A DNA stretch of 40,389 nt, taken from assembly GCA_031265535.1 (NCBI GenBank), contig JAISCO010000322.1, positions 1 to 40,389 on the forward strand, written 5' to 3'. Numbering within the stretch: the stretch's first letter is position 1; every line of letters begins with the position of its first letter. The notes beneath the pieces are model-generated. The model searched no databases. It was not told the origin of the DNA and was given only the letters and a program-made list of their open reading frames with translations. The position numbers and the translations under genes are program-made. Shown here piece after piece: positions 1,793-28,260 of the stretch. The stretch is from Spirochaetaceae bacterium (GTDB lineage Bacteria > Spirochaetota > Spirochaetia > Treponematales > Breznakiellaceae).

Positions 1793-2215
1793 TTACATCT
1801 CTTGCTCGATTTCTTCCGATTCGTCCGGTTCATTGCCGGGTTTCTCATTGGCACGGGAGTTATCCGCGTCCTGTGACTGTTTATTTTCGATGTACTTGCC
1901 GGTAACATTGACTTTTATAGGTCGGTTCAGTTCTTTTGATGCGGCGATACGATGATTCCCGTCTTTCTCCAGCACATACTGATCGCTGCAACGGGATACT
2001 TCAGGAGGCGCAGCCTCATCCGCTCGTCCGGACTGAACAAAATCCATATATTCCTCTTTTGTACGTCCGTGATGATTCCAGAATTTAGGGTCATTGGCAT
2101 TCCATTCTTTATCCTCGATAATATCATGCGGATTGACGACCGCCTCATTTTCGGGGCAGTGTTCCCATTTTATTTCGCCGGACCGGCGCTTCTGTTCAAA
2201 TTGCTCTCTGTTCAT
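1793..2215 (-). CDS. small ParB/sulfiredoxin-like protein (DGNHR motif), last gene of the long operon
   Basis: 140 aa. SD AGGAGG before the ATG, 12 nt downstream of the preceding gene. 'YVLEKDGNHRIAASKEL' resembles the ParB N-terminal-domain DGxHR motif. Acidic C-terminal tail. Confidence 0.45.
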   Translation of the reverse strand: MNREQFEQKRRSGEIKWEHCPENEAVVNPHDIIEDKEWNANDPKFWNHHGRTKEEYMDFVQSGRADEAAPPEVSRCSDQYVLEKDGNHRIAASKELNRPIKVNVTGKYIENKQSQDADNSRANEKPGNEPDESEEIEQEM

Positions 2216-2227
2216 GTAGAGCCTCCT

Positions 2228-3814
2228 TTATATTTTTAGTGATGACACGACATTTTGGAACAATGCGCTCTGCTGTAAAAACCATGTAATCGGTTCCAAC
2301 ACGCCCCAGGGCTCATACTTCTGGCCATAAGCCGCAGGATGTCCCATAGCGCTGACGGGGTAATACTGAACTTTGTTAAACTTAGCGTCTATGAGATTCA
2401 CCGCGTTGCTAAAACCGCGGTTATCCAGGAAAGCGCGGCATACTCCGTTTCTGACGAGATCCCTGCTTGTGCCGCCTTTTGTATCGGCGTACTTTTGAGC
2501 GTTGGAACTAAAAGTAGCCGCTATCTTAGGCAGACCGATTTCCTGCCTGTACAAATCGGCTTTTGTAATCAAAACGGCAATCGGCACATCGGAGGTTTTC
2601 ATGGAACGGAGTCCTTTCAAGCCCTCGAATTCACGGATAAAACCGGATACCGCATCTGATATATGCGTAGGGGAAGCGGTCGGGTCTATAATAAAAGCTA
2701 TCCCCTCGCAGTATTGAAATTGCTCCTGCTGAGTATCACTTGCAAAATCCGAAAACGCCTCTCCCGCAATATCATAGATAGTCATCTGAACGGGCGTTTT
2801 TTTCCCCTCCCTATGGATTACGCTGTACATATTTGCGTTGCGTTCCGCTGTAGTTGAGCTATTGCCGTTCTGAAACCATTCTTCCAAAACGGCAAACGCA
2901 TCTTCGGGCGCTGCGGTGATCGAAATGCCGCGCATACTTTTTAGCCGCTCCAAATACTCATGCCAAAACGCGGCAAGAAAACTAGTCTTTCCCGATTCTT
3001 TGGCGCCGACAAGCTGAATTCCGAATTGCCGCGCGTCGCTTGCCGCCAGCCCGGAAGCGCATTTTGGGCACTCAGCCTTTAACCTGGAGCGGCCATTGAA
3101 GCAGGCAGTGGGCAGGCGCTTTCCGCAAGAACATTTTTGCGTCAATATTCCGTATGGCCCGGGGGTTAGTTTCTCGTGACGCATACCGCATTTAGGGCAG
3201 ATGAAAACCGGCACTATCGAAATCCGCTTACAAGCGGGGCACCGGCTCTGAATTGCCTTGAACATCAGGATTAGTCTGTCTATCCCCCAAAAGGGCGCAA
3301 AAAAAACATAAAATACGCACATCACCGGAACGAGGAGTATAGGCATTAGCAGCGAAAAAACGGCTATCCACGCGAAACCAAATACAGAGGCGCAGAAGGC
3401 CGCAATCCCATAGAATATATAAATCCACATATCCAAAAACCATACGCCGGGCGCCTTATCGTCTCGCCAGTCTCCAAGGTCTTCCAGGCGATCTTTTTGA
3501 AAAGATAAGGCGTCTTTTACCGTAATTGATATTTGGTGGTAGCCCGGCCCAAAGAAGTAATTTTTCTTTACCCCGGAATGAGCGGACGGCGATTTGTCAA
3601 CATAGGTCGTGTAGGGGTTTATGTGTACCAGCAGCGAAGTGATAAAGCTCACAAGCGATGTATAAAAGCCATATACGACACCCGCTACCAAAGCTATAGC
3701 TAATATGGTTCCCAACAATACTCCCGCTGCCGGCAAAACAAATGGTATAATAACCTTAGTTACCAACAGGTAAAGCAGGTAGATAACTATCACGCCCGCT
3801 ATTACATAACCCAT
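2228..3814 (-). CDS. polytopic membrane protein fused to Zn-ribbons and a P-loop GTPase; third paralogue of the locus GTPase family
   Basis: 528 aa with about 5-6 N-terminal TM helices. Cys pairs CPAC...CPKC and CSC...CPKC. G1 GAKESGKT, G3 YDIAGE, G4 ITKADL. The C-terminal 'YYPVSAMG...WGVLEPITWFLQQS' parallels 'FFGVSSFG...HRVLDPILWLFKKS' of the two soluble GTPases. Confidence 0.8.
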   Translation of the reverse strand: MGYVIAGVIVIYLLYLLVTKVIIPFVLPAAGVLLGTILAIALVAGVVYGFYTSLVSFITSLLVHINPYTTYVDKSPSAHSGVKKNYFFGPGYHQISITVKDALSFQKDRLEDLGDWRDDKAPGVWFLDMWIYIFYGIAAFCASVFGFAWIAVFSLLMPILLVPVMCVFYVFFAPFWGIDRLILMFKAIQSRCPACKRISIVPVFICPKCGMRHEKLTPGPYGILTQKCSCGKRLPTACFNGRSRLKAECPKCASGLAASDARQFGIQLVGAKESGKTSFLAAFWHEYLERLKSMRGISITAAPEDAFAVLEEWFQNGNSSTTAERNANMYSVIHREGKKTPVQMTIYDIAGEAFSDFASDTQQEQFQYCEGIAFIIDPTASPTHISDAVSGFIREFEGLKGLRSMKTSDVPIAVLITKADLYRQEIGLPKIAATFSSNAQKYADTKGGTSRDLVRNGVCRAFLDNRGFSNAVNLIDAKFNKVQYYPVSAMGHPAAYGQKYEPWGVLEPITWFLQQSALFQNVVSSLKI

Positions 3815-3844
3815 ATAGAATACCTCCTTTGTAGAGTTATAGAA

Positions 3845-6373
3845 TTATTCATCATCGCGCTCGTCTCCTGAGAACATTCTGAAAAATTTGCCAAAACCGG
3901 ACCGTGGTCTCTGTGCCCGGATTTTTTCTTTTGCCTCACCCGCAACGCGCACGAAATAATCACGCGCCTCTTTCGATACCGGCATAGAGCTCAGTTTAGC
4001 CAGTGCCTTATCTCCGAGCTTAAGCTTTACGCAGACGTCAATAATGGCATCGTCGACGGCGCGGCTGCCCATCTTTGCGGCAACGGCTGTCAAGATACAC
4101 CATTCCTCGTTTCGTTTTGGCTTTGTCATGCCAAGAATGGTATCTACAAGTTCCGCCATATACGAAGGGGCGCGGGCAAACAACCGGATGATATACTCCA
4201 GTTCCTTTTGGTTCATCTGAGCCTTAAACAGTATCTTTGTTAAAGCCTGAATATAGTCCGGGTCGTCTATGGACGGAAAGCGCTGTGGTTTCAATTCATC
4301 GAAAATACTTGTGAACCGCGGTCTAGTGAGCCTGTCGTTAAGCAACTCCAGCGCATAGAGATGGGCCGAGTTTGGGCATACCGCTTCCTTGGGTTTCGTT
4401 TTCTGTATGGCGAGCGCCGCGCTCGCGCCGCCTTTTTCGGTGATAACGAGTCTGTAGTCAAGATACTGAAAAAGCTCCGCCGTATCGCGTCCGCCGGGGG
4501 GCTGAAATTTCATGACCAGATTGATGAACTGTTCGATGCCGGCGGGCCCTGACAAATCGCGGATACGGTACTTCAAAACAGATACAAAAAGATTTTCTAT
4601 CCCTTCCTGTTTAAGTTTTTTTAGGAAAGCCAGCGTGGATGCATCCGAAGCGATAATCGATTCATCGGCTTCAACAAGGAATTTAACGATGAATTCCGCA
4701 TAATCCTTTTCCGCTTTCTTTGCAATGGAAAGCAGTATATTTTGGGTGGAGATCTGCCTGTTCTGGGACAGAGCCTTAATGATCTTGCGGGCTGAGTTTG
4801 TGTCGTTCCCGCGCAGGCATAATCGCAGTCCATAGTCAACTATGTTTTTTAGGTTTTGCGCACCGACATTGCCCAGGAACGCCGCGCATTCAAGATAAAT
4901 GAGGACAAATGTAATACCCTCAGGGGCCGTAAACTGCTTAACCTGTGTACCATAATTCTGTAATGTCGATGGTTCCACAAGGAAGCCGGCCACGGCGGAC
5001 GCAAATTCGCTGCCGCGAATGTTTTCCCAAAAGCTAGAGATTCTCCGGGCATCCGGTTTGCTAAAGACTAGTCCGGCAAACTCTCCGCACACGATGCCGG
5101 TTAACTGCAGCGAAGCGTCCTTGTCTCCAAGCGTCTTTGAAACCGTTTGCAGCCATTTGATTATCCGCAGCGCACTGTTCAGGTTATCACGCAAAAAGCG
5201 CTTTAGCTCCGTCCTGATACGATTATACAGATTTTTAAGCATTTGACTGTTAAACATTCTGTATTTGTCCAGGACGGAGAGGTTTTTTTCAAGCGTCTCC
5301 GCGTTCGGAAGAGAAACGGTATCCACCAGGGCTGTAAAACACTCAAACAAGCTGTAGATGTCGTAATGCGGCGAGTCAATATCCAGCATTTGCAGGAATT
5401 CGCGGCAGAAAATCTGGTGCTTATGGTCGAAGGCGCTTATAAGACGATAGTAACGATGCGAAGTATCCGCTTCAAAAGCCGCGCGTTTTTCCTTGCCGTC
5501 AAGCAGCACGAACGGTGAATTGGCAAGGGGGCGGGCCGCCGCCGTATTTGTCCGGTCCCGTTCATCAACGCCGACAATCATGGCGCGGTAACGTTGTTTT
5601 TGCTTGGGGTCTTGAAGATTTATTTGTGTTTGATAGACGCCCGCCTGGTTAACGGTGTAGCGATTGGCGGCAGCAAACCCATCCATCCTCGTTGCAAACG
5701 GGACGGCGGACGCTATGCGGGGCGAAAAAGCGAGTTCAATCGCCGCGATCCACAATTCAACCTTTTCGGACGACTCGTCTCGAATCACAAGGAACTTTCG
5801 GCTTTCGGGAGGTTGTTCATACTGGAAAATCAAAAACGAGACAGCCGACATGAGCGCTTCTTTGCGCCCGTCCGAAATGAACGCGGTGATCTTGTCAATA
5901 TTGATTTGCCCGGCGGGGGCGTTCACTTCACGGGCAGGCAGCGGGGCGGACGGCTTCTCATAGTAGTACGCCTCGCCGCGTCCCTTCGCGTTCCAGACGG
6001 CGCTATCCCTAAACAATTCGAATGGATAGAAGCCGGAAAAGTCGCCGGCAATAATTTGGTTCACGAAATTACCGGGGCGATGGGAATAATCACCCTTGGC
6101 ATCCGGGTCATAAGGACGCGGATGAAAGTCAAGCATGAAGCTGTTACCCTTATCCGGGACAAAATACAAATATGCGTCATCCATAAATGCGGGATCGTTG
6201 TAGGGCTGTTTTTTCTGCGCGGCGTCGAACAGGAACGGAAGGTCGGCGCTGCCGTCCTCCATCAGAGCGGGCGTGCAGGAATAGACCTTAAACCCGTCCC
6301 CCGGAATGCTTCTCCCCGTCTTTAGTATGTCGATGCCGTTTCGGCAGTGAGTGTAAATCAGTTCGGAATACAT
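3845..6373 (-). CDS. 842-aa mostly helical cytoplasmic protein, possibly GAP1-like (GTPase-associated protein)
   Basis: Long ORF with SD GGAGG, 14 nt downstream of the GTPase pair. The N-terminus 'MYSELIYTHCRNGIDIL...GDGFKVYSCTP' resembles the LxYTSC...G..GFQ pattern I remember for GAP1 N-terminal domains. I saw no catalytic motif. Confidence 0.55.
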   Translation of the reverse strand: MYSELIYTHCRNGIDILKTGRSIPGDGFKVYSCTPALMEDGSADLPFLFDAAQKKQPYNDPAFMDDAYLYFVPDKGNSFMLDFHPRPYDPDAKGDYSHRPGNFVNQIIAGDFSGFYPFELFRDSAVWNAKGRGEAYYYEKPSAPLPAREVNAPAGQINIDKITAFISDGRKEALMSAVSFLIFQYEQPPESRKFLVIRDESSEKVELWIAAIELAFSPRIASAVPFATRMDGFAAANRYTVNQAGVYQTQINLQDPKQKQRYRAMIVGVDERDRTNTAAARPLANSPFVLLDGKEKRAAFEADTSHRYYRLISAFDHKHQIFCREFLQMLDIDSPHYDIYSLFECFTALVDTVSLPNAETLEKNLSVLDKYRMFNSQMLKNLYNRIRTELKRFLRDNLNSALRIIKWLQTVSKTLGDKDASLQLTGIVCGEFAGLVFSKPDARRISSFWENIRGSEFASAVAGFLVEPSTLQNYGTQVKQFTAPEGITFVLIYLECAAFLGNVGAQNLKNIVDYGLRLCLRGNDTNSARKIIKALSQNRQISTQNILLSIAKKAEKDYAEFIVKFLVEADESIIASDASTLAFLKKLKQEGIENLFVSVLKYRIRDLSGPAGIEQFINLVMKFQPPGGRDTAELFQYLDYRLVITEKGGASAALAIQKTKPKEAVCPNSAHLYALELLNDRLTRPRFTSIFDELKPQRFPSIDDPDYIQALTKILFKAQMNQKELEYIIRLFARAPSYMAELVDTILGMTKPKRNEEWCILTAVAAKMGSRAVDDAIIDVCVKLKLGDKALAKLSSMPVSKEARDYFVRVAGEAKEKIRAQRPRSGFGKFFRMFSGDERDDE

Positions 6374-6387
6374 GTTAATTCCTCCTT

Positions 6388-7488
6388 TTAATCAATGAAC
6401 TTTGACTTCTTAAAGAGCCACAGTATAGGGTCCAATACGCGGTGCGGCTGAATGTCGTTCACCAGGGTATCTCTGGTTACCGGGGGCTTGCCAAAACTTG
6501 AAACGCCGAAAAAATAAAATTCCTTAAAGTGCGACTCCAGCATAGTGATGAACGCGTCTTCCCTGATTTCACAGAGCCAGTTGCGGATTTCGCCGTCTAC
6601 CTGCTCAATTTCGGTTGTATCAAGCTTACCGTTTCGAATGTTAAGGCTTTTGCTCTTTATAAGTGCGCGAGGCCCGAATGATCTGTGATTGATGATAGTG
6701 TCGAACTTTGTCAAAACGACGGCAACGGGGATTTCCAGCAACTGAGAGGCTCTTATCCCTCTTGCCGACTTGATATACGAAACCACGTTGTTGATGACGT
6801 CGGCGGCATTTTTCGTTTTGCCTGAAAATCCAGCGAGTGAATTCGTCATGACATCCGGGTCAACGACACCGCCCCTCCGTATGCCGGACAGCACGAGAGG
6901 GTCAATGACGAGGATGATTGCTTTCGAGGCTTCTATATACCGGCATACGGTCGATGAAGTATCGAGGTTTTCGTGATCTTCACCGGCGCCGTCAAAGATG
7001 GTAAATGTATAAACAGGTGTTTCATTCTTAGTCTTTCTCGCCAAATTGCTAATTTGCCATATCTGCGGCATATTTGCTCCTGATTGCGTACCTTCAGCAC
7101 GTGTATGGTCCTCATAGATACGCCTGTAGTTTCCATCCTGGTGGTCATGCGTCTCTTTGGTCTGGTCCGCTAAAGACAGCTTTAAGCCCGGTACCCCCCT
7201 TCCTAATTCATGCAGCATGACCGTGATGTAATTCGTCTTGCCGGAGTTAGACACGCCGACAATGCTGAAAGGCAGGTTTGGCGTTTCAAGAGATGTTTTG
7301 GGAATATCATTGAGGCAGCTTGGGCATCTGCGTACTTTAGCAATACGGCCGCACTTCCGGCATTTAATCGGCTCTCTCTCAAAAGCCTTTGGGGTCACTA
7401 TTCCTCCGCATCCATCTTCAGTACAGACATAAAGCACTTTGCTTTTGTCGTACTCCCGAATGCAGAATGGGCATGTAAATTTCGCCAT
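6388..7488 (-). CDS. double Zn-ribbon + P-loop GTPase (tandem paralogue 2)
   Basis: 366 aa. Cys pairs CPFC, C..GC, CRKC, CPSC. G1 GVSNSGKT, G3 FDGAGED, G4 LTKFD. First 22 aa and last ~40 aa are identical or near-identical to the neighbour at 7506-8594. Confidence 0.85.
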   Translation of the reverse strand: MAKFTCPFCIREYDKSKVLYVCTEDGCGGIVTPKAFEREPIKCRKCGRIAKVRRCPSCLNDIPKTSLETPNLPFSIVGVSNSGKTNYITVMLHELGRGVPGLKLSLADQTKETHDHQDGNYRRIYEDHTRAEGTQSGANMPQIWQISNLARKTKNETPVYTFTIFDGAGEDHENLDTSSTVCRYIEASKAIILVIDPLVLSGIRRGGVVDPDVMTNSLAGFSGKTKNAADVINNVVSYIKSARGIRASQLLEIPVAVVLTKFDTIINHRSFGPRALIKSKSLNIRNGKLDTTEIEQVDGEIRNWLCEIREDAFITMLESHFKEFYFFGVSSFGKPPVTRDTLVNDIQPHRVLDPILWLFKKSKFID

Positions 7489-7505
7489 TTTTTTCTCCTA
7501 TATTT

Positions 7506-8594
7506 TTAATCAATGAACTTTGACTTCTTAAAGAGCCATAGTATCGGGTCCAATACGCGGTGCGGACGAATGTCGTTCACCAGGGTATCTTTAGTTACCG
7601 GGGGCTTGCCAAAACTTGAAACGGCAAAGAAATAAAATTCTTTAAAATGTGATTCCAGTACGTTGATGAACGCGCTTTCCCCAATTTCACGGAGCCAGGT
7701 GCGAATTTCGCCGTCTACCTGCTCAATTTCGGTTGTATCCAGCTTGCCATTTCGAATAACACGGCTTTCTCTCTTTATAGTGGCCTGAGGCCCGAACGAC
7801 TTGTGATTGATGATAGTGTCGAACTTTGTCAAAACGACAGCAACGGGAATTTCCAGCAACTGAGAGACTCTTATCTCTCTCTCCGACTTGATATACGAAA
7901 CCACGTTGTTGATGACATCAGCGGTATTTTTCACTCCGTTTAAGCATCCGCTGCTTGAGTTCGCCATGACATCCGGGTCGACTACACCGCCCCTCCGTAT
8001 GCCGGACAGCACGAGAGGGTCAATGACTAGGATGATTGCTTTCGAAGCTTTGATATACCGACATTCAGTCGATGAAGTATCAAGGTTTTCATGATCCACG
8101 CCGGCGCCGTCAAAGATGGTAACTGTATAAGCAGATGCCATGCCTCTATGCTTTTTATTTAGATTCGTGACGCACCATATCTGCGGCATATTTGCTCCTG
8201 ATTGTGTACTTTCAGCACGGGTATGTTTCTCATAGATACGCTCGTAGTTTTCCCTCTGATGTTTATGTGTCTCAATGGTCAGGGGCTTCAAAAACAGGCC
8301 CAAGTCCGATGCCCTCCCCAATTCATGCAGCATAGCCGTGATATAACTCGTCTTGCCGGAGTTATCCACACCAACAATGCTGAAAGGCAGGTTGGGCGTT
8401 TCAAGAACCGCTTGGGGAACATAATTGCAGCAGAATGGGCATTCGCTAACAGCAACACGGCCGCACTTCCGGCACTTAATCGGCTCTCTCTCAAAAATTT
8501 TTGGAGTCGCTGTTTCTTTGCATTCAAGGCAGACATAAAGCACTTTGCTTTTGTCGTACTCCCGAATGCAGAATGGACATGTAAATTTCGCCAT
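7506..8594 (-). CDS. double Zn-ribbon + P-loop GTPase (tandem paralogue 1)
   Basis: 362 aa. Cys pairs CPFC, CLEC, CRKC, CPFCC. G1 GVDNSGKT, G3 FDGAGVD, G4 LTKFD. SD AGGAGA. Starts 9 nt after the stop of the upstream gene. Confidence 0.85.
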   Translation of the reverse strand: MAKFTCPFCIREYDKSKVLYVCLECKETATPKIFEREPIKCRKCGRVAVSECPFCCNYVPQAVLETPNLPFSIVGVDNSGKTSYITAMLHELGRASDLGLFLKPLTIETHKHQRENYERIYEKHTRAESTQSGANMPQIWCVTNLNKKHRGMASAYTVTIFDGAGVDHENLDTSSTECRYIKASKAIILVIDPLVLSGIRRGGVVDPDVMANSSSGCLNGVKNTADVINNVVSYIKSEREIRVSQLLEIPVAVVLTKFDTIINHKSFGPQATIKRESRVIRNGKLDTTEIEQVDGEIRTWLREIGESAFINVLESHFKEFYFFAVSSFGKPPVTKDTLVNDIRPHRVLDPILWLFKKSKFID

Positions 8595-14236: not shown

Positions 14237-14866
14237 TTACTCCGCGCCCCATATCCTGACGGTTTTATCATTTGACCCGGAAGCTATCCTGCGCCCATCG
14301 GGGCTCCACGCCACGGACAGTACATCGTAGGTATGCCCCTTGAGCGTGTGCAGTTCACGCCCGCTCTCCGCGTCCCATATTTTGATGGTTTTATCCGATG
14401 ACCCGGAAGCTATCCTGCACCCGTCGGGGCTCCACGCCACGGAGTATATGTAGTCGGAATCCTTGAGCGTGTGTAGTTCACGCCCACTCTCCACATCCCA
14501 TATCCTGACGGTCATATCATTTGACCCGGAAGCTATCCTGCGCCCATCGGGGCTCCACGCCACGGACAGTACATCGTAGGTATGCCCCTTGAGCGTGTGC
14601 AGTTCACGCCCGCTCTCCGCGTCCCATATCCTGACGGTTTCATCCCGTGACCCGGAAGCTATCCTGTGCCCGTCGGGACTCCACGCCACGGATTCTACAA
14701 TGTGATGCCCCGTGAGCGTGTGCAGTTCACGCCCGTTCTCCGCATCCCATATCCTGACGGTGTCATCCCCTGCCCCTGAGGCAATCTTGAGCCCATCGGG
14801 GCTCCACGCCACGGAATATACATAGAAGAAATGCCCCTTGAGCGCACGCAGTTCACGCCAAAGCTC
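14237..14866 (-). repeat. intragenic tandem array of ~126-bp WD40-coding repeats (5 units)
   Basis: Same repeat family as 11714-12829. Units 3 and 5 are almost identical at the DNA level. Confidence 0.9.
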
Positions 14867-20189: not shown

Positions 20190-21869
20190 CTATTTGTGAT
20201 CAAAACCGCTCTCAATTTGTCCGCGGGGGTTTATCGAAGCAAGAAATTTTTTTGCTTCGTCCATTTCTTCCTCTGTTTTGGGATTTCCTCTTTCTATGAC
20301 GGCGCTGACCGATTCGCCGGTTAAAGTATTGGTTGCCGAGACTTCAAGCCCGATTTCGCTGGCACGGAAGACTACCTCAATTGGCGAACTATTTGGGGTG
20401 TTGGGGGGCAGCTTTAAACTGAGCTCGCCGATCTTATTGACCATAAGAGCCGGGTCGGTGGGCTGATCATTGCCGTTCATATCTTCGGAGGGAGTAACGT
20501 GCGTGTTCACCCGGTCCCTCGAAGCATTTTGGAACACGACAAGGTTAACCACGCGCTGATTATCGCAGCGCGTGTAATAGGTAGAGGTCGCCTCTGCCGG
20601 TATCTCATCATTGACAAAGAGCAGATTGTCAATCACATACAAGTCATTTTTATCCAGAATACCCGGCCCCAGGGAGCGGTTGAGTTTGTCTTTGACAGTG
20701 ATATGCCGCGGTACGTTTTGCAGCAGCTTTTCTTCTTCTTTTTTGGTAATGGGAGTCGGTTCTTCTTTAATACGCTCTTGGATCTGCTCGTTATATTTTA
20801 TAGCGGCAGTTAAAGCCGCGCCTTTTGCGACAGCCAAGTGGGGCTGTTCAACACGCACCTTGCCGGGGAACAATCCCTCAACAGCGGCCTTAACCATAGG
20901 CATCAATGTAGACCCCCCAACGAGCAGTACAAGATCAACATCGTCCGCCTGAAGTTTTGCCTTCCCCAGCAATTGACGCACAAAGTCCATAGTCCGCTCG
21001 ACCAGGTCCCTGGTCCGCTCTTCGAACTTCTCGCGGCTTACCTCCAGGCGAGTGCCTTCACCGCCATAGCTGATTATAAAACTCTTGTTCGACATCGTAG
21101 AGAGATTTTTTTTAACAGTTTCCACCTGTGAACGGATCTTCTGGCGAAGTTCGCCTTCCATATCGTCCTGGGAAACTCCGGTTTGAGCGGTGTAAAGTTC
21201 GCATATATAGTCATACAGACTGGCGTCCCAGTTAATGCCGCCCAGGCGGTCGTTGCCGCCGGTTTCAATGACGTCAATAGTCGCCTTGTCGTTGTCGTCA
21301 ACACTAAAATCAAACAGTGTAATATCAAAGGTACCGCCGCCCAGGTCATAAACCATGATTTTACGGTTCTCACTGAACTCGTGGCAGCAATAGTTAAGCG
21401 CGGCGGCGGTCGGCTCATTGACAATCTTCAGGACTTCCAAGCCCGCAATGTCGCCCGCCCTTTTTGTCTCGGTGCGTTCATTATCACCAAAATACGCGGG
21501 GCATGTGATAACGACGTTTTTCACCTGATGGCCCTGCGCTTCGGCATATACTTTCATACGCTTCAGAATGAGAGCAGAGATTTCTGCGGGGTCATACTTT
21601 TTCCCGTTAAATTCACGAATCTGAGCGTCTTTCTTGCCGATTTCTCTTTTGACAAACTGAACGACTCTGTCAGGTTCAAGTTCCGCCTGACTCTTAGCCG
21701 CTTCTCCGATCACCGGATCGCCTTCACTTGGGAAGTAAACGGCGGACGCAAGCAAATCGCCGCCGTCATCATAGTTTTGAATAACCTCCGGCATTCCGTT
21801 TTCATTCAGAGTCGTGATGACCGAGTAAGTAGTACCCAGGTCAATACCATAAACTTTTTCCTTTTCCAT
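20190..21869 (-). CDS. Hsp70-family ATPase with SBD-beta but little or no helical lid
   Basis: 559 aa. Motifs GIDLGTTYS, VNEPTAAALNY, YDLGGGTFDITL, LLVGGSTLMPMV. SBD-beta-like '...IEVVFRASEIGLEVSATN'. SD AAGGAG. Confidence 0.85.
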   Translation of the reverse strand: MEKEKVYGIDLGTTYSVITTLNENGMPEVIQNYDDGGDLLASAVYFPSEGDPVIGEAAKSQAELEPDRVVQFVKREIGKKDAQIREFNGKKYDPAEISALILKRMKVYAEAQGHQVKNVVITCPAYFGDNERTETKRAGDIAGLEVLKIVNEPTAAALNYCCHEFSENRKIMVYDLGGGTFDITLFDFSVDDNDKATIDVIETGGNDRLGGINWDASLYDYICELYTAQTGVSQDDMEGELRQKIRSQVETVKKNLSTMSNKSFIISYGGEGTRLEVSREKFEERTRDLVERTMDFVRQLLGKAKLQADDVDLVLLVGGSTLMPMVKAAVEGLFPGKVRVEQPHLAVAKGAALTAAIKYNEQIQERIKEEPTPITKKEEEKLLQNVPRHITVKDKLNRSLGPGILDKNDLYVIDNLLFVNDEIPAEATSTYYTRCDNQRVVNLVVFQNASRDRVNTHVTPSEDMNGNDQPTDPALMVNKIGELSLKLPPNTPNSSPIEVVFRASEIGLEVSATNTLTGESVSAVIERGNPKTEEEMDEAKKFLASINPRGQIESGFDHK

Positions 21870-21887: not shown

Positions 21888-24437
21888 TTATTTTTTTACC
21901 GGATTACCGGCGTTTGACTCATCAATTGGCGCTGTACAGCCCGGCAGACTCGCCGGGATATAAGGCTCATCTTTTAACCCCGCTTCCTTGTTATAGATAG
22001 CGAGCGATACTTCATAGTCCTCAAAGACGGTCGAGATTTCTTTTATACACGCTTCGGCAAATTTTGGCTCCAAGAAATACTGACTGGGAACAGACCTTAT
22101 GGTAGAAAAAAACTGCGTCAGGGACGGACTTGTATATTTCAGGTATGCTTCATAGTCCCGGCGGTGATCTTCCGAGTCGAATACATAGATCTTGCCGTGC
22201 ACAGCAAGAGAAGAGCAGAGCCACCCAAAGTTATCGAATTGAATACAGTATGCCTTGGCGAAACCATCAAACAGGCTTTTCAGTTCGGGTGTTGATTTAC
22301 CTCTATACTCCGCCGCTTTCTCCGGCTCGCCGGCCATGTATGCGGCAAAGTCATACAAATCTTTTACCTGCCTAAGGGCAGCCTCATTCGTGTTTGGCCT
22401 TGGGTTTGGAGATTTTCGCAAAGCCTCAAGTTCCGCATACATTTTATACACGTTGGTTGGAAACCGAGGATATTTTTTAAACAGATCAGCGGTGGAAATT
22501 ATTGTAAATCCGGCGGCGCGGAAAAGATCCTCCAAATGTTCCCTGGATAGCATCGTCTTTTTTTGATGACCGCGAATCGCCCCCTCTGTAATTACATGGA
22601 AACCCGATTGTTTGAGCAGCGAAGCGACCGCCCTTAATTTTTCAATTTCTTTTTTTACTTTATCTTTTGCCAGATCATCATAGGCAGGAGTGAGCTTGCC
22701 TTCATTATTAAAGATGCTTTTGGATATGGAGTCCAAAAAAGACGTTTTCCCCGCGGTTTCATCGCGCTCAAACTGCTGTACGGATAAGAAAATTGTCGTG
22801 TCAAGTTCTTTTTTTGCCTTGTTGATAGCGTCGATAAGCTTTTGCGCCGCCTTTTCGGGCGGGTCAAAAGGCAAGTGTGTCAAATCAAAGAAGTCGTAGT
22901 CAAGGCGATTTTGAACGGGCTCATTTTTGGTGTTTTCGCTTGTTATGACGGTGTTGACCTTTTCGCCGGTTTGAACATTGGCTGCCGAGACTTCCAGCCC
23001 GGTTTCGCCGGCACAGAAAAGCACCCGGATTGGCGAAGCCTTATGGGTGCCGGGTGGCAGCTTCAAGCTGAGCACTCCGATTTTCTTGACCATCAGAGCC
23101 GGATCAGTGGGCTGCGTATTACCATTTATGTCTTCGGAAGGAGTAACATGCTTGTCCCTGTCCTTTGAAGTATTTTCAAACAAGACAAGTTTAATTTCGC
23201 TCTGATTATCAATGCGTGTGTAACAGGTAAAAGCCGCCTTAGCCGGCAGTTCATCACCTACAAAGAGTAGATTGTCAATAACATACCGGCCATCACCATC
23301 TATGATACCCGGCCCCATGGAACGGTTGAGTTTGTCTTTGACCTTACCTGCTTTCTTGTTTTCTTTATATCCTACAAAGGCAGCCAAAGCCGCGCCTTTT
23401 GCGACAGCCAGGTCGGGCTGCTCAATACGAACCTTGCCGGGGAACATACCCTCAACAGCGGCCTTGACCATAGGCATCCTCGTAGAACCCCCAACGAGCA
23501 GTACAAGATCGATATCGTCCGCCTGAAGTTTTGCCGTCCCCAGAAGCTGACGCACAAAGTCCATAGTCCGCTCAACCAGGTCCCTGGTCAGCTCTTCAAA
23601 CTTCTCGCGTCTTGGCTCCAGGCGAGTACCTTCACCAGCATAGCTGATTATGAAACTCTTGCTCGACATATGGGAGAGATTTTTTTTAACATTCTCCACC
23701 TGTGAACGGATCTTCTGGCGAAGTTCGCCGTCCATCTCGCTCTGGCGAACCCCGGTTTGAGCGGTGTAAAGTTCGCATATATAGTCATACAGGCGCTCGT
23801 CCCAGTCAACGCCGCCCAACCGGGCGCTGCCGCCGGTTTCAATGACGTCAATATTTGTTTTGCCGCCGGCATCAACACTAAAATCAAACAGTGTAATATC
23901 AAAGGTACAGCCGCCCAGGTCATAAACCATGATTTTGCGGTTCTCAGTGAACTCGCTGCAGCAATAGTTAAGCGCGGCGGCAGTCGGCTCATTGACAATG
24001 TTTAGGACATTCATGCCCGCAATAATGCCCGCCTGTTCTGTCGCGGCGCGTTCCCCTCTGCCAAAATACGCGGGGCAGGTGATAACGACATTTTTCACCT
24101 GATGTCCCTGAGTTTCGGCGTACTCTTTCATTCGCTTCAGAATGAGGGCAGAGATTTCTATGGGGCCATACTTGACTCCGTTAAATTCACGAATCTGCGC
24201 GTCATCCTTGCCGATTTCTCTTTTGACAAACTGAAAGACCCTGTCGGGGTCAAGTTCCGCGTGACTCTTCGCCGCTTCACCGACCACCGGATCGCCTTCA
24301 CTTGGGAAGTAAACGGCGGACGCAAGCAAATCGCTGCTGTCATCATAGTTTTGAATTACCTCCGGCATTCCGTTTTCATTCAGAGTCGCGATGACCGAGT
24401 AGGTAGTACCCAGGTCAATACCATAAACTTTTACCAT
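21888..24437 (-). CDS. Hsp70-family ATPase fused C-terminally to the shared ~335-aa module
   Basis: 849 aa. Residues 1-~505 are paralogous to 20190-21869. From residue 513 (nt 22901 downward) the sequence 'DYDFFDLTHLPFDPPEKAAQK...' repeats the module found at the N-termini of four downstream genes. The phosphate-2 motif reads DLGGCTFD (Cys codon at 23907-23909). Confidence 0.85.
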   Translation of the reverse strand: MVKVYGIDLGTTYSVIATLNENGMPEVIQNYDDSSDLLASAVYFPSEGDPVVGEAAKSHAELDPDRVFQFVKREIGKDDAQIREFNGVKYGPIEISALILKRMKEYAETQGHQVKNVVITCPAYFGRGERAATEQAGIIAGMNVLNIVNEPTAAALNYCCSEFTENRKIMVYDLGGCTFDITLFDFSVDAGGKTNIDVIETGGSARLGGVDWDERLYDYICELYTAQTGVRQSEMDGELRQKIRSQVENVKKNLSHMSSKSFIISYAGEGTRLEPRREKFEELTRDLVERTMDFVRQLLGTAKLQADDIDLVLLVGGSTRMPMVKAAVEGMFPGKVRIEQPDLAVAKGAALAAFVGYKENKKAGKVKDKLNRSMGPGIIDGDGRYVIDNLLFVGDELPAKAAFTCYTRIDNQSEIKLVLFENTSKDRDKHVTPSEDINGNTQPTDPALMVKKIGVLSLKLPPGTHKASPIRVLFCAGETGLEVSAANVQTGEKVNTVITSENTKNEPVQNRLDYDFFDLTHLPFDPPEKAAQKLIDAINKAKKELDTTIFLSVQQFERDETAGKTSFLDSISKSIFNNEGKLTPAYDDLAKDKVKKEIEKLRAVASLLKQSGFHVITEGAIRGHQKKTMLSREHLEDLFRAAGFTIISTADLFKKYPRFPTNVYKMYAELEALRKSPNPRPNTNEAALRQVKDLYDFAAYMAGEPEKAAEYRGKSTPELKSLFDGFAKAYCIQFDNFGWLCSSLAVHGKIYVFDSEDHRRDYEAYLKYTSPSLTQFFSTIRSVPSQYFLEPKFAEACIKEISTVFEDYEVSLAIYNKEAGLKDEPYIPASLPGCTAPIDESNAGNPVKK

Positions 24438-24455: not shown

Positions 24456-25235
24456 TTATTTTTCCGCCGGATTACCGGCGCTGGTACCCTCGAAACGATA
24501 AATCTCTACGCGTTCTTTTACCAGCGAACGGTTTTCAATATAGAAGCCCGCGCTGCGGCTTGATGCGACCGTATCATGCAAATCGGGATTCTCCACCGGG
24601 ATTAGCTTAACGATCTGGCTATGCCTTGTATTGCGCTTGTCCCCCGGTTTGCTTTTCAGTTTATGAACACCGTTAGCCTCAAGGATCTGAAGAATTCCAA
24701 AAAATATACCGCTAATCCACTTTTTCCCCTTGTTGTCCGCAATCTTCTCAATAAAGGGCTCGTTGTCGCTGTACAGTCCGGCAAGCTCGCGGAGTATTTC
24801 GTCGAATACAAGCCCCCTGTCCCTCTCGTGGTACTTATCCAACTCTCCCTGCATGAACCTCAAGCGTTTGTCGAATTCATTTTGGTAGAGCTTATGCACC
24901 TCCCGGATTTCGCCCGTTGTCTTTACAGAGGCTTCGGCGATGATTTTAAGCTCCCGTTCAAGACGCTCTATGCCTGTCTGCACGGTCTGTAATCCATCCG
25001 ATAAGTTTTCTTGATTTGCGTCCGGGGATTTCTCTTCCGCGCTTTTCACGGCGATTTCCGGCGCGTCAGAGCATTGCCCGCATGCAGCCGCCCCCGTGGC
25101 GCTTTCCGGCACGTACGGGGATTTCTCCTCCGCGCTTTCCACGGCGATTTCCGGTGCGTCAGGGCATTGCCCGCATGCAGCCGCCTCCGTGGCGGTTTCC
25201 TCAAGTTCATTTTCCGTAATTTTTGATTCTTCCAT
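24456..25235 (-). CDS. GrpE-like nucleotide-exchange factor with a repeated Cys-containing acidic N-terminus
   Basis: A coiled-coil segment is followed by 'GIFFGILQILEANGVHKLKSKPGDKRNTRHSQIV...VASSRSAGFYIENRSLVKERVEIY', which follows the GrpE C-terminal pattern (GV..i...G..f....H.av......V.....GY...R.lr.a.V.V). Start chosen at MEESK (GGAGG 8 nt upstream). ATG at 25250 or the track start at 25307 are alternatives; 25307 would overlap the upstream gene. Confidence 0.65.
   Translation of the reverse strand: MEESKITENELEETATEAAACGQCPDAPEIAVESAEEKSPYVPESATGAAACGQCSDAPEIAVKSAEEKSPDANQENLSDGLQTVQTGIERLERELKIIAEASVKTTGEIREVHKLYQNEFDKRLRFMQGELDKYHERDRGLVFDEILRELAGLYSDNEPFIEKIADNKGKKWISGIFFGILQILEANGVHKLKSKPGDKRNTRHSQIVKLIPVENPDLHDTVASSRSAGFYIENRSLVKERVEIYRFEGTSAGNPAEK
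25024..25194 (-). repeat. 2 x 93-bp tandem repeat inside the GrpE-like gene
   Basis: Units start at 25024 and 25117. They encode AT(E/G)AAACGQC(P/S)DAPEIAV(E/K)SAEEKSP twice. Confidence 0.85.
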
Positions 25236-25264
25236 AACAAATGCCTCCATAAAAATATTTCCCA

Positions 25265-26650
25265 CTAAACTTCGGCGAAAAGAGTTCCGCCGGGCTTGTG
25301 AATACAAGCAAAAGTACCGGGCAGCTTTGCAAGAGTTTCTGCCCTTACACGGGGTTCGTCTGTTTCATCAACCCATAAGCCCCGTGAATCGCCGGGGTTC
25401 ATGAAACCGCTGGTCTGAGAAATATTGTGCTTAATTCGTATCTTATGATACTTCCCTAAATGATCCGACCACTTTTGGCACGAGGTCCCCGATGTGTGCC
25501 GAAAAAGAACGATGGCGCCGATATTTCCCGTTATTTCAGAGAACAGATCCTCGCCCCGCAGTCCGCCGCCAAATAACGAAGACACGAAGTCGTTGTGGCT
25601 AATCGCGTATACCCGCCCGCGCAGCAAGTCGTTCACTTTCGGAAAGCGTGATACGGGTATGCCGTCTAAAAGAATAGAAAAACTTCGCCCCTGCGACTGG
25701 AGGAGCATAAGATGATTTACTACCAAAGAGAAAAATAAATCATTATTTACATTCCCGACATCAACAGCGATTGCGCCTTTGCAGTTGAGCATCTTTTTTA
25801 TATTGCAGACCTTGGAAGCCGGCCTGCCGTATATGCCTTCGGCTTGCCGGTTTAGCTTGTTTAAGAAAATACGAACAGAATCAATCTCCGGCGATCCGGA
25901 CATATAATAACGATTGATTTCGCGGTACTCATCAGAAGTGAGTTCACCGGCTTTCTGCATGGCATCCAGCTTGTTATTCAGGTCGGGCAGCGGAAAGGCG
26001 GCAAGGTTTTGGAATGTTACCGTCCCTTCCACGCGCAGCAGCACCTCCAGCAGAGAGTGGAGTAATGCCTCCGCGGCAGGGCTTGCATTATCATCCGGCA
26101 TGGTTTCGTACAATAAATGCGCCATATCCTCCACCGGCATACCGCGAAAGGCATCATAATAAAAGCTGCCCCGTGAAATAAGCTCGCAGGCGCTGCTATT
26201 TCCGTTAATCATGGTTTCCAATTCATGGTTGCCGCTATGCAGCGCGATAAGAGGAGTATCTTCTTGCTGAGATTTATTCACAAATGGCATGAGGGCGCGG
26301 ACACGCTCGTTATTTTGACCCCCTGACACTACCGATGACTCCGGCCCGTCTGTTTCTCCCCATATATAATCAATGGCGGGAGTGGAACTCGCGGGCTCAT
26401 AATCGTAAATATCGTTATCGCTGGGATCGCCTGATATCAGGAGTAACTGCTGCTTGTCGGCGCCCGACAAGACGCCTACCGAACGATTCTGAAAATTTGT
26501 ATCATGCGCGTTATTGTAGATTTCCTGAATTTCTTTCTTTGTTCTGGCTCTCTGGAGCGCAGTAAAAATTATCCTGCCGGGCTGTGAGGAAGCGGCAATT
26601 GAGCCGCCTATCACTTGGCCAAAAGAACTAATCACGTTACCGAATCCCAT
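25265..26650 (-). CDS. unknown 461-aa protein, probably a degenerate (Walker-A-less) paralogue of the adjacent VirD4-like ATPase
   Basis: SD AAGGAG, 3 nt after the upstream stop. By-eye alignment to the neighbour: 'QQLLLISGDPSDNDIY' vs 'KHILLVGGTGSGKTNLF', 'FSILLDGIPVS' vs 'VYLIADELKLL', 'IGAIVLFRHTSG' vs 'FSSVFAFQSNDF'. Confidence 0.6.
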   Translation of the reverse strand: MGFGNVISSFGQVIGGSIAASSQPGRIIFTALQRARTKKEIQEIYNNAHDTNFQNRSVGVLSGADKQQLLLISGDPSDNDIYDYEPASSTPAIDYIWGETDGPESSVVSGGQNNERVRALMPFVNKSQQEDTPLIALHSGNHELETMINGNSSACELISRGSFYYDAFRGMPVEDMAHLLYETMPDDNASPAAEALLHSLLEVLLRVEGTVTFQNLAAFPLPDLNNKLDAMQKAGELTSDEYREINRYYMSGSPEIDSVRIFLNKLNRQAEGIYGRPASKVCNIKKMLNCKGAIAVDVGNVNNDLFFSLVVNHLMLLQSQGRSFSILLDGIPVSRFPKVNDLLRGRVYAISHNDFVSSLFGGGLRGEDLFSEITGNIGAIVLFRHTSGTSCQKWSDHLGKYHKIRIKHNISQTSGFMNPGDSRGLWVDETDEPRVRAETLAKLPGTFACIHKPGGTLFAEV

Positions 26651-26653
26651 AAT

Positions 26654-27964
26654 TTAAAGCTCCTTCCCGGTGAACAAATCAAACTTATAGCGAAACGGAG
26701 GAACCGAAGGGATCCCCGCGATGGCTTCGCCTACCGAGAGCGAAACCAGATCCCAGTCCTCGACCATATAGCCTTCGCGCTTCTCGTAATGACGGCTTCC
26801 GTTTGCCTCCGCGAAACTTTCCAGTATCATGTTGCGGCCAAATAGCTTGCTGACATACTCTCTTGTATTGAAATCGTTTGACTGGAAAGCAAAAACGGAT
26901 GAAAATCCCGCTACCGCGTTTCTTGCTTTTGCCTCGTTTTGATAATTGGCGTTTAGCTGATCAATACTCTGGAGGCCGGCCAGTATCTTTACGCCGAGGC
27001 TGCGTCCAAAGTTTATACCATCTTCCAGGTGCCTCAGGTTCGGAAGCAGCTTTAACTCATCCGCGATAAGATAGACGTTACCTTGTGTTGCCGTTCTGCC
27101 GAGCGCCTCCTTGAGGGCAAGGTCAAATAGCAGCGTATAAATGGGCGAGAGTATATCTCCGATTGCCATGTCATATTCAAGGAAGGCTGTCCGAGCGCCT
27201 TTCTGCCGGATGAAATTTCTTATAGAAAATTCTCCAACATCCGCAAAAACGCCTGTCAAGACATCCCGCATTACCGAATACATCTCCGAAAGAACCCCTT
27301 GCGACTGCGAACCGGACTTGCCTCCAATATACGAGGCGACCGCCGCAAGGTCGCGGTGTTCCGCAAGCAATGCCCTTAAATCATCAACAGAAGCGGAATC
27401 TATGTAATTCTTAATATCTTTATTGTTGGGCGTAACACCGTTACGAACCAAAGCCGTGATAATAGAAGCGAGCAGATCGCGGGCAGCGTTGGGAAAGAAT
27501 GGATTGTTGCTGTTTTTCTCTATACGCTCGGCAAAAAGTGATTTGCAAATCTCCTGCGTGTTTTGAGCGACCGATACGCCGTCCTTACCGTCCGCGATTA
27601 TCTCCTGGTAAATGCTCCATTTATCAGGCCATTTGCGATACTGAATCGAATTCCCTATTACGATGTCTTTACCGGTAAAAAATTTCTTGTGGAAATCGCC
27701 TTTGCTGTCGAAAATAAGCATCACATCATCTTTGCTAAGATTTGACTTAAGCTGCTTAACGATATGATAGAACAGATTCGTTTTACCGCTCCCGGTGCCG
27801 CCAACGAGTAAAATATGCTTACTGAGCATCTCTTCCGTTATCCCAAACGGCCGTTTGGCGCCGTTGAACTCACCGGGAATCCGAACAATAGCGTGAGGTG
27901 TGTCCGGCGGCGGAGTATTGTTCTCGACCAGTCTGCCATACACTACTTCATGGTTTATTGGCAT
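26654..27964 (-). CDS. soluble FtsK/HerA-superfamily P-loop ATPase of the VirD4/TraG/TraD coupling-protein type
   Basis: 436 aa. Walker A LLVGGTGSGKTN, Walker B VYLIADELKLL, then 'FGRSLGVKILAGLQSIDQL', typical of T4CP-like ATPases. No N-terminal TM segment. Confidence 0.7.
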   Translation of the reverse strand: MPINHEVVYGRLVENNTPPPDTPHAIVRIPGEFNGAKRPFGITEEMLSKHILLVGGTGSGKTNLFYHIVKQLKSNLSKDDVMLIFDSKGDFHKKFFTGKDIVIGNSIQYRKWPDKWSIYQEIIADGKDGVSVAQNTQEICKSLFAERIEKNSNNPFFPNAARDLLASIITALVRNGVTPNNKDIKNYIDSASVDDLRALLAEHRDLAAVASYIGGKSGSQSQGVLSEMYSVMRDVLTGVFADVGEFSIRNFIRQKGARTAFLEYDMAIGDILSPIYTLLFDLALKEALGRTATQGNVYLIADELKLLPNLRHLEDGINFGRSLGVKILAGLQSIDQLNANYQNEAKARNAVAGFSSVFAFQSNDFNTREYVSKLFGRNMILESFAEANGSRHYEKREGYMVEDWDLVSLSVGEAIAGIPSVPPFRYKFDLFTGKEL

Positions 27965-28047
27965 GAAAACACCACTCCACCGGTGCCTGTCAACCCCGGA
28001 CCTGATTCTGTACTGCGAAGATTTTCTTTAAATCCCACCGCGCTCCC

Positions 28048-28224
28048 CTACTTGTTCGTGTAGTTTTTGCCGCTCACCCATGCTTCATAGTTGCCGCAGG
28101 TTTTGCAATTTTGATCCGACTTGCAGTTGTAGTCCCTGTGGCCTGATGACTGCTTTTGTTCCGACAGGCAGCATCTGTCGCTATGCGCGTCATAATGCTG
28201 ACACCAGCCGTATTGGTTTTGCAT
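28048..28224 (-). CDS. Cys-rich 58-aa protein (below the ORF-track cutoff), first gene of the long operon
   Basis: My translation is MQNQYGWCQHYDAHSDRCCLSEQKQSSGHRDYNCKSDQNCKTCGNYEAWVSGKNYTNK, ending at TAG. SD GGAGA 7 nt upstream, embedded in a class-1 leader cassette. Six Cys residues. Confidence 0.5.
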   Translation of the reverse strand: MQNQYGWCQHYDAHSDRCCLSEQKQSSGHRDYNCKSDQNCKTCGNYEAWVSGKNYTNK

Positions 28225-28231
28225 AAATTAT

Positions 28232-28260
28232 CTCCTTCCCGCTGTTACGCCGCGGAACAC
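28232..28260 (-). promoter_or_regulatory. conserved 5' leader cassette, class 1 (copy 2 of 4), at the head of the long operon
   Basis: Minus-strand reading is GTGTTCCGCGGCGTAACAGCGGGAAGGAG, then 8 nt and ATG. It is preceded by GGTTATTCATTAC, which resembles the TATACAT box upstream of the class-2 cassettes. Confidence 0.55.

Follow-up and report, generated by a model that had tools for sequence, protein, structure and literature searches.

Systems in which DO-GTPases, defined by a conserved Walker-B glutamate and carrying N-terminal zinc ribbons (ZnRs), are followed by a downstream gene for a GAP1 protein made up of N, M and C domains were predicted by Kaur, Burroughs, Iyer and Aravind (eLife 2020; PMC7159879). 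In the GAP1-N2 variety of these systems one GTPase bears two ZnRs, a second one has four N-terminal transmembrane (TM) segments and is sometimes fused to SH3, and a rapidly evolving FNIII protein is also encoded; in about 14% of GAP1-N2 neighbourhoods there are, in addition, HSP70, GrpE and a truncated second HSP70, and DnaJ or TPR is joined to the FNIII protein (PMC7159879). We report here on a contig of 40,389 nt (JAISCO010000322.1, forward strand, from assembly GCA_031265535.1 of a Spirochaetaceae bacterium), referred to as the window, in which an unbroken run of minus-strand open reading frames (ORFs) extends from 28224 down to 1793. Our analysis provides good support for the view that a conserved cassette of about nine genes, spread by horizontal transfer, is present at this locus in an expanded copy, and that this cassette matches the predicted GAP1-N2-type HSP70-GrpE theme.

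The features held in common with the published theme comprise DO-GTPases with two ZnRs, a second, SH3-associated GTPase with four TM segments, a GAP1-like gene directly downstream, HSP70 with GrpE and a truncated second HSP70, a protein that has FNIII repeats and a TPR-like element, carriers in Firmicutes, Actinobacteria and Planctomycetes, and a sibling system of the kinase theme. There are differences as well. The GAP1-like protein and its relatives match GAP1-M alone, a helical module of about 325 aa stands in for a recognisable DnaJ, the host is a spirochaete of the termite-gut type, and the locus holds five extra paralogous genes. A pair of TrwB-like ATPases and a fusion of Hsp70 to vWA also set it apart, the text of Kaur et al. 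(figures not covered) making no mention of such an ATPase in these systems or of the fusion. An earlier note on this DNA had likened the ZnR GTPases and an 842-aa protein to the systems of Kaur et al., and this likeness is borne out, directly by DO-GTPase2 matches and indirectly by GAP1-M. The same note had found the combination of three Hsp70s with a GrpE-like factor impossible to place; it does have a place, in the GAP1-N2 theme with HSP70, GrpE, truncated HSP70 and FNIII protein (PMC7159879). As to whether the locus matches an already named and characterised system, the one that it matches has a name and has been predicted, yet is uncharacterised.

The conserved cassette and its distribution

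The credible genes of the run are numbered g01 to g09 and g11 to g17, g10 being a doubtful ORF of 44 aa and g18 a gene outside the run. Those that recur in other genomes are given below, with NBD standing for nucleotide-binding domain.

g02, 26654..27964, minus strand: soluble P-loop ATPase of TrwB/VirD4/TraD type (Pfam TrwB_AAD_bind, 3e-41)
g03, 25265..26650, minus strand: partner with the TrwB fold, without Walker A
g04, 24456..25250, minus strand: GrpE-like nucleotide exchange factor (Pfam GrpE, 4.7e-5)
g06, 20190..21869, minus strand: lidless Hsp70, NBD and beta-subdomain (Pfam HSP70, 2e-88)
g07, 17989..20172, minus strand: Hsp70 NBD and beta-subdomain with vWA (Pfam HSP70, 5e-102; VWA, 1.5e-16)
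g12, 8604..11669, minus strand: module, double Zn ribbon, TPR-like hairpin, helical region and FN3-type repeats, about 1000 aa
g14, 6388..7488, minus strand: DO-GTPase with two ZnRs (DO-GTPase2, 30.1 bits, above the cut-off of 27)
g15, 3845..6373, minus strand: GAP1-like protein, 842 aa
g16, 2228..3814, minus strand: DO-GTPase with four TM segments and two ZnRs (DO-GTPase2, 33.0 bits against a cut-off of 27; DO-GTPase1, 32.2 bits)

With g15, g03 and the module as anchors, 44 loci were collected, about 40 of them non-redundant, and their gene orders were compared by tblastn with all proteins of the window. The order g02-g03-g04-g06-g07-g12-g14-g15-g16 recurs in about 40 loci from at least eight lineages. 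Sources include Spirochaetaceae, Holophagales, Balneolaceae, Cryptobacterium, Gardnerella and Ruminococcus, together with Oscillospiraceae, Lachnospiraceae, Aerococcaceae, Planctomycetaceae and Synergistales; among phyla, the cassette is found in Spirochaetes, Firmicutes, Actinobacteria, Planctomycetes, Acidobacteria and other phyla. The earlier note had reckoned with homologues that neither co-occur nor keep their order in other genomes; in the loci compared, the order is conserved across phyla. Identities of 60-79% between spirochaete and Coriobacteriia orthologues point to horizontal transfer. Cultured carriers are Lachnospiraceae bacterium 10-1, Ruminococcaceae bacterium YRB3002, Gardnerella vaginalis and Aerococcaceae NML190073.

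This recurrence bears directly on one alternative, namely that unrelated units (what is left of a conjugation system, an operon for chaperones and another for GTPases) have come to lie side by side on one strand by chance. Such a juxtaposition could accommodate the resemblance of g02 to conjugative coupling proteins, as well as a second leader cassette and a gap of 96 nt in or beside the array, but it is already contradicted by the fact that about 40 loci in different phyla repeat the order that runs from g02 to g16. T4SS (type IV secretion system) and relaxase genes are absent from the window and from the related loci, and sites resembling internal promoters (28, against 21.9+/-4.3 in shuffled sequences) or terminators (23, against 25.6+/-5.2) are not in excess within the array. 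We therefore hold chance juxtaposition to be very improbable. The lack of such an excess is also compatible with a single transcript, though it does not prove one.

The layout of the run points the same way as its first description in most respects. Gaps of 3-96 nt between genes and AGGAG/GGAGG-like sites 5' of nearly all starts, both noted previously, are confirmed by the ORF listing and by inspection of the start sites, if g04 is taken to begin at the ATG at 25250, which is the most likely start in preference to the TTG at 25307. The run of minus-strand ORFs stands as well, whereas its count of 17 does not: g10 (14271-14137) overlaps both of its neighbours and is probably spurious, and hence we count 16 credible genes.

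Conservation is uneven along the cassette. Median identity to the relatives is 60-75% for g02, g03, g06 and g07 and 38-40% for g12, g15 and g16, the sensor-like parts being the fastest-evolving. These figures enter into a second alternative, in which the cassette serves no conflict at all and its Hsp70 polymers, together with the GTPases and the FN3/vWA scaffolds, give order to a structure near the membrane that is concerned with the envelope, with division or with a cytoskeleton-like function. An identity of 60-75% across phyla for g02, g03 and g07 would suit such a machine, and so would the lack of a toxin enzyme in the window; furthermore, a sister theme of the GAP1 systems uses tubulin homologues, and Kaur et al. 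write of assemblies "akin to cytoskeletal structures" (PMC7159879). The patchy distribution of the cassette and its near-identical order in unrelated phyla, on the other hand, mark it as an accessory, horizontally transferred element. Its FN3, GAP1 and TM-GTPase parts diverge fast, its 3' slot is variable, and variable heads have been expanded in the genome of the window. In addition, a g15 homologue exists as an orphan and a kinase can stand in for the Hsp70 part. On balance, a cellular machine of this sort seems improbable.

Components of the core and the 3' slot

The product of g02 has Walker A (GGTGSGKT) and Walker B (LIADE) motifs and matches the NCBIfam TraD model at 9e-26, far under the cut-off of that model; hydropathy reveals no TM segment and no N-terminal TM anchor. 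Its orthologue lies 5' of that of g03 in loci L037, L038, L039 and L041. For g03, neither Pfam (E<=10) nor NCBIfam nor PADLOC yields a match, a profile search of the PDB returns nothing significant, and BLASTP detects no significant similarity to g02. The core of its AlphaFold2 (AF2) model, however, spans residues 110-350 with a predicted local distance difference test (pLDDT) score of about 90, and is matched by Foldseek to the C-domain of DndH (8e-5) and to TrwB (7e-4) with probability 1.0. A Walker A motif was looked for in g03 and is not present. What had been called an active/inactive VirD4-like pair is thus supported by the model and its structural matches to TrwB and DndH-C, not by sequence. 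Among 191 homologues of g03, the best 120 are all at least 58% identical to it, which places it among the best conserved proteins of the cassette, and the g02/g03 pair is a conserved core component. With TrwB/VirD4/TraD and the C-terminal motor of DndH the pair shares a P-loop domain with an inserted all-alpha domain, g02 by sequence and g03 by fold. It differs from T4SS coupling proteins in having no N-terminal TM anchor and no plasmid location, and in the missing Walker A of g03.

The Pfam GrpE score of g04 is weak (23.6 bits, cut-off 25.8), but the NCBIfam GrpE model aligns over nearly its full length (6e-4, positions 19-185 of 194), and g04 orthologues at syntenic loci are likewise flagged as GrpE. 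The match of g06 covers positions 1-377 of the HSP70 profile only, and the vWA part of g07 has a metal-ion-dependent adhesion site (MIDAS) motif reading DVSGS. Matches over at least 60% of the length are found in 27 related loci for g06 and in 26 for g07, with the vWA part missing in some. All three Hsp70s of the window lack the helical lid, which is replaced by vWA in g07 and by the module in g05, and the ATPase motifs of the cassette Hsp70s are intact. In our reading of their sequences they retain the beta-subdomain, and the published wording of a second HSP70 "sans peptide-binding domain" is therefore only partly true here. Intact Hsp70 ATPase motifs and a GrpE-type factor in the same operon are also what a housekeeping DnaK-DnaJ-GrpE set would offer, but here the Hsp70s are lidless, no J-protein with an HPD motif accompanies them, and the surroundings are GTPase, vWA and FN3 genes. 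The earlier claim of a dedicated multi-NTPase system, as opposed to a housekeeping DnaK operon, is supported. The N-terminus of g04 (24950-25200) contains two acidic repeats of about 30 aa, each with CGQC (AAACGQC[PS]DAPEIAV.SAEEKSP), which could constitute a small metal-binding element absent from canonical GrpE.

In the GTPases, the motifs of g14 are GVSNSGKT (G1), DGAGE (Walker B) and TKFD (G4), and those of g16 are DIAGE (Walker B) and TKAD (G4), with TM segments at residues 1-63 and 124-185 by hydropathy. CxxC pairs can be read in g14 and g16, as well as in the duplicate g13, and the orthologues in the relatives are also annotated as DO-GTPases. In 34 of 38 loci, the gene directly upstream of the g15 orthologue encodes a GTPase. 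The case of g15 is less direct. A profile search of the PDB gives nothing significant, and an exhaustive profile search extends its family to 280 representative clusters. Among 49 distant family members, 18-29% identical to g15, 40 match Pfam GAP1-M at equivalent residues (best 8e-7, residues ~195-240) and no other family recurs; syntenic orthologues match GAP1-M too. Since the distant members of its family match GAP1-M, we treat g15 by transitivity as a divergent GAP1. The context fits, and suggests, the GAP1-N2 subtype, which sequence does not demonstrate. A full-length homologue of g15 (48% identical) also occurs by itself in a metagenome-assembled genome of Clostridia (L002/L010, 10001-12523), between a gene for a DEAD-box helicase and an Opp transporter, with no GTPase or cassette gene within 10 kb upstream or 5 kb downstream.

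Downstream of g16 the cassette opens into a slot of variable content; the features of this region in the window and in three relatives are the following.

g17, 1793..2215, minus strand: acidic protein of 140 aa in the variable 3' slot, with a DGNHR motif only
g18, 1036..1746, minus strand: protein with TM segment and SH3_3 (Pfam SH3_3, 4e-14), outside the coordinates of the earlier note
slot toxin cassettes, L003 14861-15501, L004 14588-15494 and L005 7771-8407: directly downstream of the TM GTPase gene

Orthologues of g17 are present in L004, L008 and L011. A ParB-like nature had been proposed for g17, making it a candidate effector; no profile match to ParB or to any family was obtained (Pfam at E<=10, PDB profile search), and the proposal, having no profile support, is set aside. 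In L005/L006 and L011, homologues of g18 are found 3' of the g16 orthologues, and SH3_3 is fused to the g16-orthologue GTPase in L003; g18 probably belongs to the system. At the position of g17, L003, L004 and L005 have toxin/immunity pairs, either Imm33 with GH-E or SMI1_KNR4 with Tox-GHH, which suggests a variable slot for effector or immunity genes. Beyond the slot there is often another g16-like GTPase, of divergent sequence.

It is in connection with this slot and with the motor pair that the main rival explanation must be weighed. In it, the TrwB-like pair, together with Hsp70s and GrpE that keep substrates unfolded, would export proteins, be they toxins or surface proteins, or move DNA through the membrane, with the TM GTPase/SH3 and FN3/vWA proteins as an envelope-proximal scaffold and the GTPases and GAP1 as a gate on export instead of on cell death. 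Such a machine would account for the membership of g02 in the family of T4SS coupling proteins and the same fold in g03, for toxin/immunity cassettes directly downstream in three relatives, and for SH3 peptidoglycan-binding domains fused to the TM GTPase or encoded beside it. Published parallels exist as well. For a kindred class of Kaur-type systems, MoxR-vWA 'Esr', control over Esx secretion has recently been reported (PMC13622651), and soluble FtsK/EssC-like ATPases in extended Type III-A CoCoNuT operons have been read as possibly secretory in a computational study (Bell et al., eLife 2024; PMC11090510). Nonetheless, g02 has no TM anchor, the basal cassette is devoid of a channel, relaxase, WXG100/LXG substrate or any other secretion component, toxin cassettes of small, orphan-type domains occur in only 3 of about 40 loci, and the cassette, by a search of PLSDB with g03, is absent from plasmids. 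Chaperone-assisted translocation or secretion is, in our view, rather unlikely.

The extended CoCoNuT operons, which also include a biotin-carrier-like domain and glycine-zipper proteins (PMC11090510), have in common with the cassette and its expansion a GTPase core, Hsp70-like units of NBD and substrate-binding domain, vWA, soluble and partly inactivated ATPases of the FtsK/HerA superfamily, and glycine-zipper proteins. They differ in their McrB-type GTPase, McrC, coiled-coil nucleases, CSD and CARF, none of which is present here, and their Hsp70-like units have degenerate ATPase motifs, as opposed to the intact, GrpE-accompanied Hsp70s of the cassette. By analogy, they may be regarded as an independent and equally untested parallel.

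The module, its recent duplication and the flanks

Five further genes of the run are paralogues of cassette genes or carry the module of g12.

g05, 21888..24437, minus strand: Hsp70 NBD and beta-subdomain, with the ~325-aa module replacing the lid (residues ~513-840; Pfam HSP70, 3e-88)
g08, 15874..17973, minus strand: module, charged and TPR-like repeats, C-terminal glycine-zipper TM bundle (TM segments 581-689)
g09, 14237..15844, minus strand: module and WD40 propeller (Pfam WD40, 2e-65)
g11, 11714..14140, minus strand: module, TPR-like repeat and long WD40 array (Pfam WD40, 4e-90)
g13, 7506..8594, minus strand: duplicate DO-GTPase with ZnR (DO-GTPase2, 26.9 bits, just under the cut-off of 27)

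The closest relative, L039, in which g03 is 89% identical, holds only the basal cassette, preceded by a homologue of g01. Genes g05, g08, g09, g11 and g13 hence represent a lineage-specific expansion, and since the paralogues are 58-89% identical rather than identical, the expansion is not an assembly artefact. Through recent duplications the module has come to sit on the C-terminus of an Hsp70, on a membrane protein with a glycine zipper and on two WD40 propellers. Protein alignment and families of DNA repeats confirm five copies, as counted in the earlier note, at the C-terminus of g05 and the N-termini of g08, g09, g11 and g12; four of them are 57-89% identical to one another (89% between g08 and g09) and that of g12 is about 39% identical to the rest. 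As a general feature, on the other hand, the five-fold adaptor does not hold, for in the relatives the FN3 protein alone bears the module, in a single copy; no Hsp70-module fusion like g05 exists in any related locus, and the head of g08, a candidate membrane effector to judge by its TM bundle, was not found in the relatives. The two Hsp70s g05 and g06 are 74% identical. Likewise, g13 and g14 are 78% identical, but the Walker B of g13 reads DGAGV, having lost the Glu that defines DO-GTPases, and g13 may accordingly be a regulatory, hydrolysis-impaired paralogue. The logic of the expansion is that of the effector-associated domains (EADs) of Kaur et al., with one copy on a core component (g05) and others on adjacent variable heads. 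The module nevertheless differs in being about 325 aa long, helical and without a match to any named EAD or Pfam family, and the EAD-like pattern is specific to the locus of the window, because the relatives have a single copy.

Helical and ending in a conserved YIP, the module is, as tblastn on the syntenic loci reveals, the conserved N-terminus of every g12 orthologue, and FDPPE is an invariant motif in it; g12 is the ancestral module-bearing protein. A word-indexed search had given three outside proteins and an impression of rarity, which the presence of the module in all g12 orthologues dispels. Neither Pfam at E<=10 nor PDB profile searches with the module or its N-terminus gave a significant match, and the AF2 model of the whole module is mediocre (pLDDT 68.8), with no Foldseek hit at E<1. 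The versions in Lachnospiraceae and Aerococcaceae start with NYFEILGL, recalling helix I of the J-domain, and a J-like origin of the N-terminal 34 residues is a hypothesis that this sequence resemblance invites; an HPD motif is not present in this J-like N-terminus. Residues 183-260 were also considered as the J-like part and received no hhalign support.

A stronger argument than J-likeness for the module as an interface with Hsp70 is the strict co-occurrence of module, Hsp70 and GrpE. Upstream sequence of at least 9 kb is available for 26 loci; 24 of them have Hsp70 as well as the g12 orthologue with its module, and two have neither. One of these two, L001 (Treponema sp. R8-4-B8, 1-14983), has no GrpE either, and displays two protein kinase genes 5' of the GTPase and GAP1-like genes, one of the kinases taking the place of the module and being fused to a C-terminal domain of the g12 type. 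As a sibling system it resembles the published kinase theme, described as limited to actinobacteria (PMC7159879).

Matches to g12 over at least 60% of its length are found in 31 loci. Its Pfam DZR match is weak and g12 itself has no Pfam fn3 match, whereas its full-length orthologue in L022 (35% identical, residues 1-1021) matches fn3 with 39 bits (cut-off 25) and TPR_19 at 0.0015, and the orthologues in L017 and L033 have weaker fn3 matches. Of the domains read earlier by eye, the TrwB/VirD4-type ATPase, three HSP70s, VWA and WD40 are confirmed by Pfam, and Fn3 in g12 itself is not. Repeats with a period of 24 nt at 12828-13132 and 16250-16998 encode charged tracts of the EERRKREE type, flanking a unit of about 50 aa (YFAAAEQAL.KSDFELAR...DPGKK.KTDELAARI) that occurs in g08 (three copies), g11, g12 and the outside protein P0122, with a weak TPR_19 match at the same place in an orthologue. 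P0123, a metagenome protein from JGI (Joint Genome Institute), shows the module on yet another variable head, its fusion partners being a glycine-zipper TM region and a domain of biotinyl/lipoyl type.

At its 5' end the run begins with a small gene and a leader.

g01, 28048..28224, minus strand: small Cys-rich protein of 58 aa, no family match
leader cassette GTGTTCCGCGGCGTAACAGCGGGAAGGA, 28233..28260, minus strand: contains a Shine-Dalgarno sequence, 8 nt 5' of the ATG of g01

In L039 a homologue of g01 (74%) lies directly upstream of the g02 orthologue. The 28-nt element GTGTTCCGCGGCRTAACRGCGGRAAGGA combines a small hairpin with a Shine-Dalgarno sequence and lies about 9 nt upstream of the ATG of its gene. 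The element as first described is real, yet it is found not twice but four times in the window, always on the minus strand (1756-1783, 28233-28260, 34388-34415 and 39467-39494; none expected). The genes behind it encode small Cys-rich or membrane proteins, namely g01, g18, a glycine-zipper lipoprotein-like protein (ORF 34378-33902) and a Cys-rich TM2-like protein (ORF 39457-38888). There are no matches in 39 related loci or in a metagenome collection, and the hairpin is no more stable than shuffled sequence; the leader is a 5' element specific to this genome and does not belong to the system. Neither Rfam nor tRNA scans returned anything for the whole window. Between 28000 and 33000, just upstream of the operon, the G+C content falls to 0.36-0.40, compared with 0.47-0.54 within the operon and 0.45-0.50 from 33 kb onwards; TPR proteins and unannotated ORFs are encoded in the low-G+C stretch, which may be a boundary between DNAs of different origin. 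In the far flank, outside the run, a 48-nt tandem repeat of at least three copies, 78-84% identical, occupies 38143-38321.

Possible function of the cassette

From the company of parts described above we infer a function in conflict, in defence or in cell death, and with modest confidence a mechanism can be drawn from the architecture. Fast-evolving FN3/WD40 surfaces, together with GAP1, would detect a cue derived from an invader or from the envelope at the membrane. GAP1 would set the nucleotide state of a soluble and a membrane-anchored DO-GTPase, a pair that might behave as a threshold switch. Lidless Hsp70s cycled by GrpE would then act on the module to assemble or release the proteins bearing it, while vWA and a TrwB-like hexameric motor would engage their target, a peptide or a nucleic acid. 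The output could be growth arrest or damage to the membrane, brought about by the TM components (g08, g16) or by the occupant of the variable 3' slot. As a whole, an expanded copy of the HSP70-GrpE theme working in conflict along these lines is the best explanation at hand, and one that we consider somewhat more probable than its negation. It is favoured by the domain identities, by the agreement with the published theme and the recurrence of the order in about 40 loci, by the joint presence of module and Hsp70, by the fast evolution of the sensor-like parts, by the fold of g03 and the weak matches of g02 to HerA, mad8 and DndH models associated with defence, by the variable slot 3' of g16 and by the signs of horizontal transfer.

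Several observations weigh against it. Defence genes usually show less conservation than the core proteins do here, and g03 has no match in PLSDB plasmids or in phage and IMG/VR collections. The window holds no enzymatic toxin and no recognisable defence neighbours. PADLOC (PADLOC-DB v2) and NCBIfam give no system or family name for the proteins of the run, the PADLOC matches being weak and confined to single domains (mad8/HerA/DndH for g02, PDC-M61B/Drt5 for the Hsp70 NBD). On the side of GAP1, g15 (scanned to E<=10) and its 292 close homologues have no Pfam annotation, and neither GAP1-N nor GAP1-C was detected at E<=1 in g15, 49 distant relatives and five syntenic orthologues, with the presence of GAP1-N models in the Pfam copy used being unverified. 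On that of the module, its N-terminal 31 columns align only weakly with J-domain helices I-II (hhalign P ~8e-4, probability 25%), DnaJ 4j80 is the only low-rmsd (root-mean-square deviation) local match of its mediocre model (Foldseek probability 0.47, E 7), and Pfam DnaJ matches neither g12 nor any of five orthologues. Finally, the literature naming DO-GTPase or GAP1-N2 is sparse, and we found in it no experimental work on any DO-GTPase/GAP1 system.

A bolder form of the same explanation can be entertained tentatively, in the knowledge that it is more apt to fail than to hold. The conserved cassette would then be an immune machine powered by Hsp70 and gated by GTPases, in which a soluble TrwB-like heteromer of active and inactive subunits acts on the DNA or protein of an invader and the module serves as a new, HPD-less adaptor that recruits Hsp70 to plug-and-play sensors and effectors. 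The copies of the module on an Hsp70, on WD40 sensors and on a pore-type membrane effector would be a direct display of this at the locus of the window.

The core of this cassette was already described computationally in 2020; to this the present analysis adds a TrwB-like pair that is conserved, the fusion of Hsp70 to vWA, the tight coupling of module and Hsp70, a spirochaete host and an expansion that reuses the module. DO-GTPase/GAP1 systems are among the largest predicted conflict systems of prokaryotes. Within the one analysed here a nine-gene core, the TrwB-like pair included, is sharply conserved, and its cultured carriers allow tests of the cassette. The expanded locus can be viewed as a natural experiment, which suggests the module as a handle through which dedicated Hsp70s take hold of interchangeable sensor and effector heads. 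Were this true, Hsp70 chaperones would be seen to serve bacterial immunity or regulated cell death in a new way.

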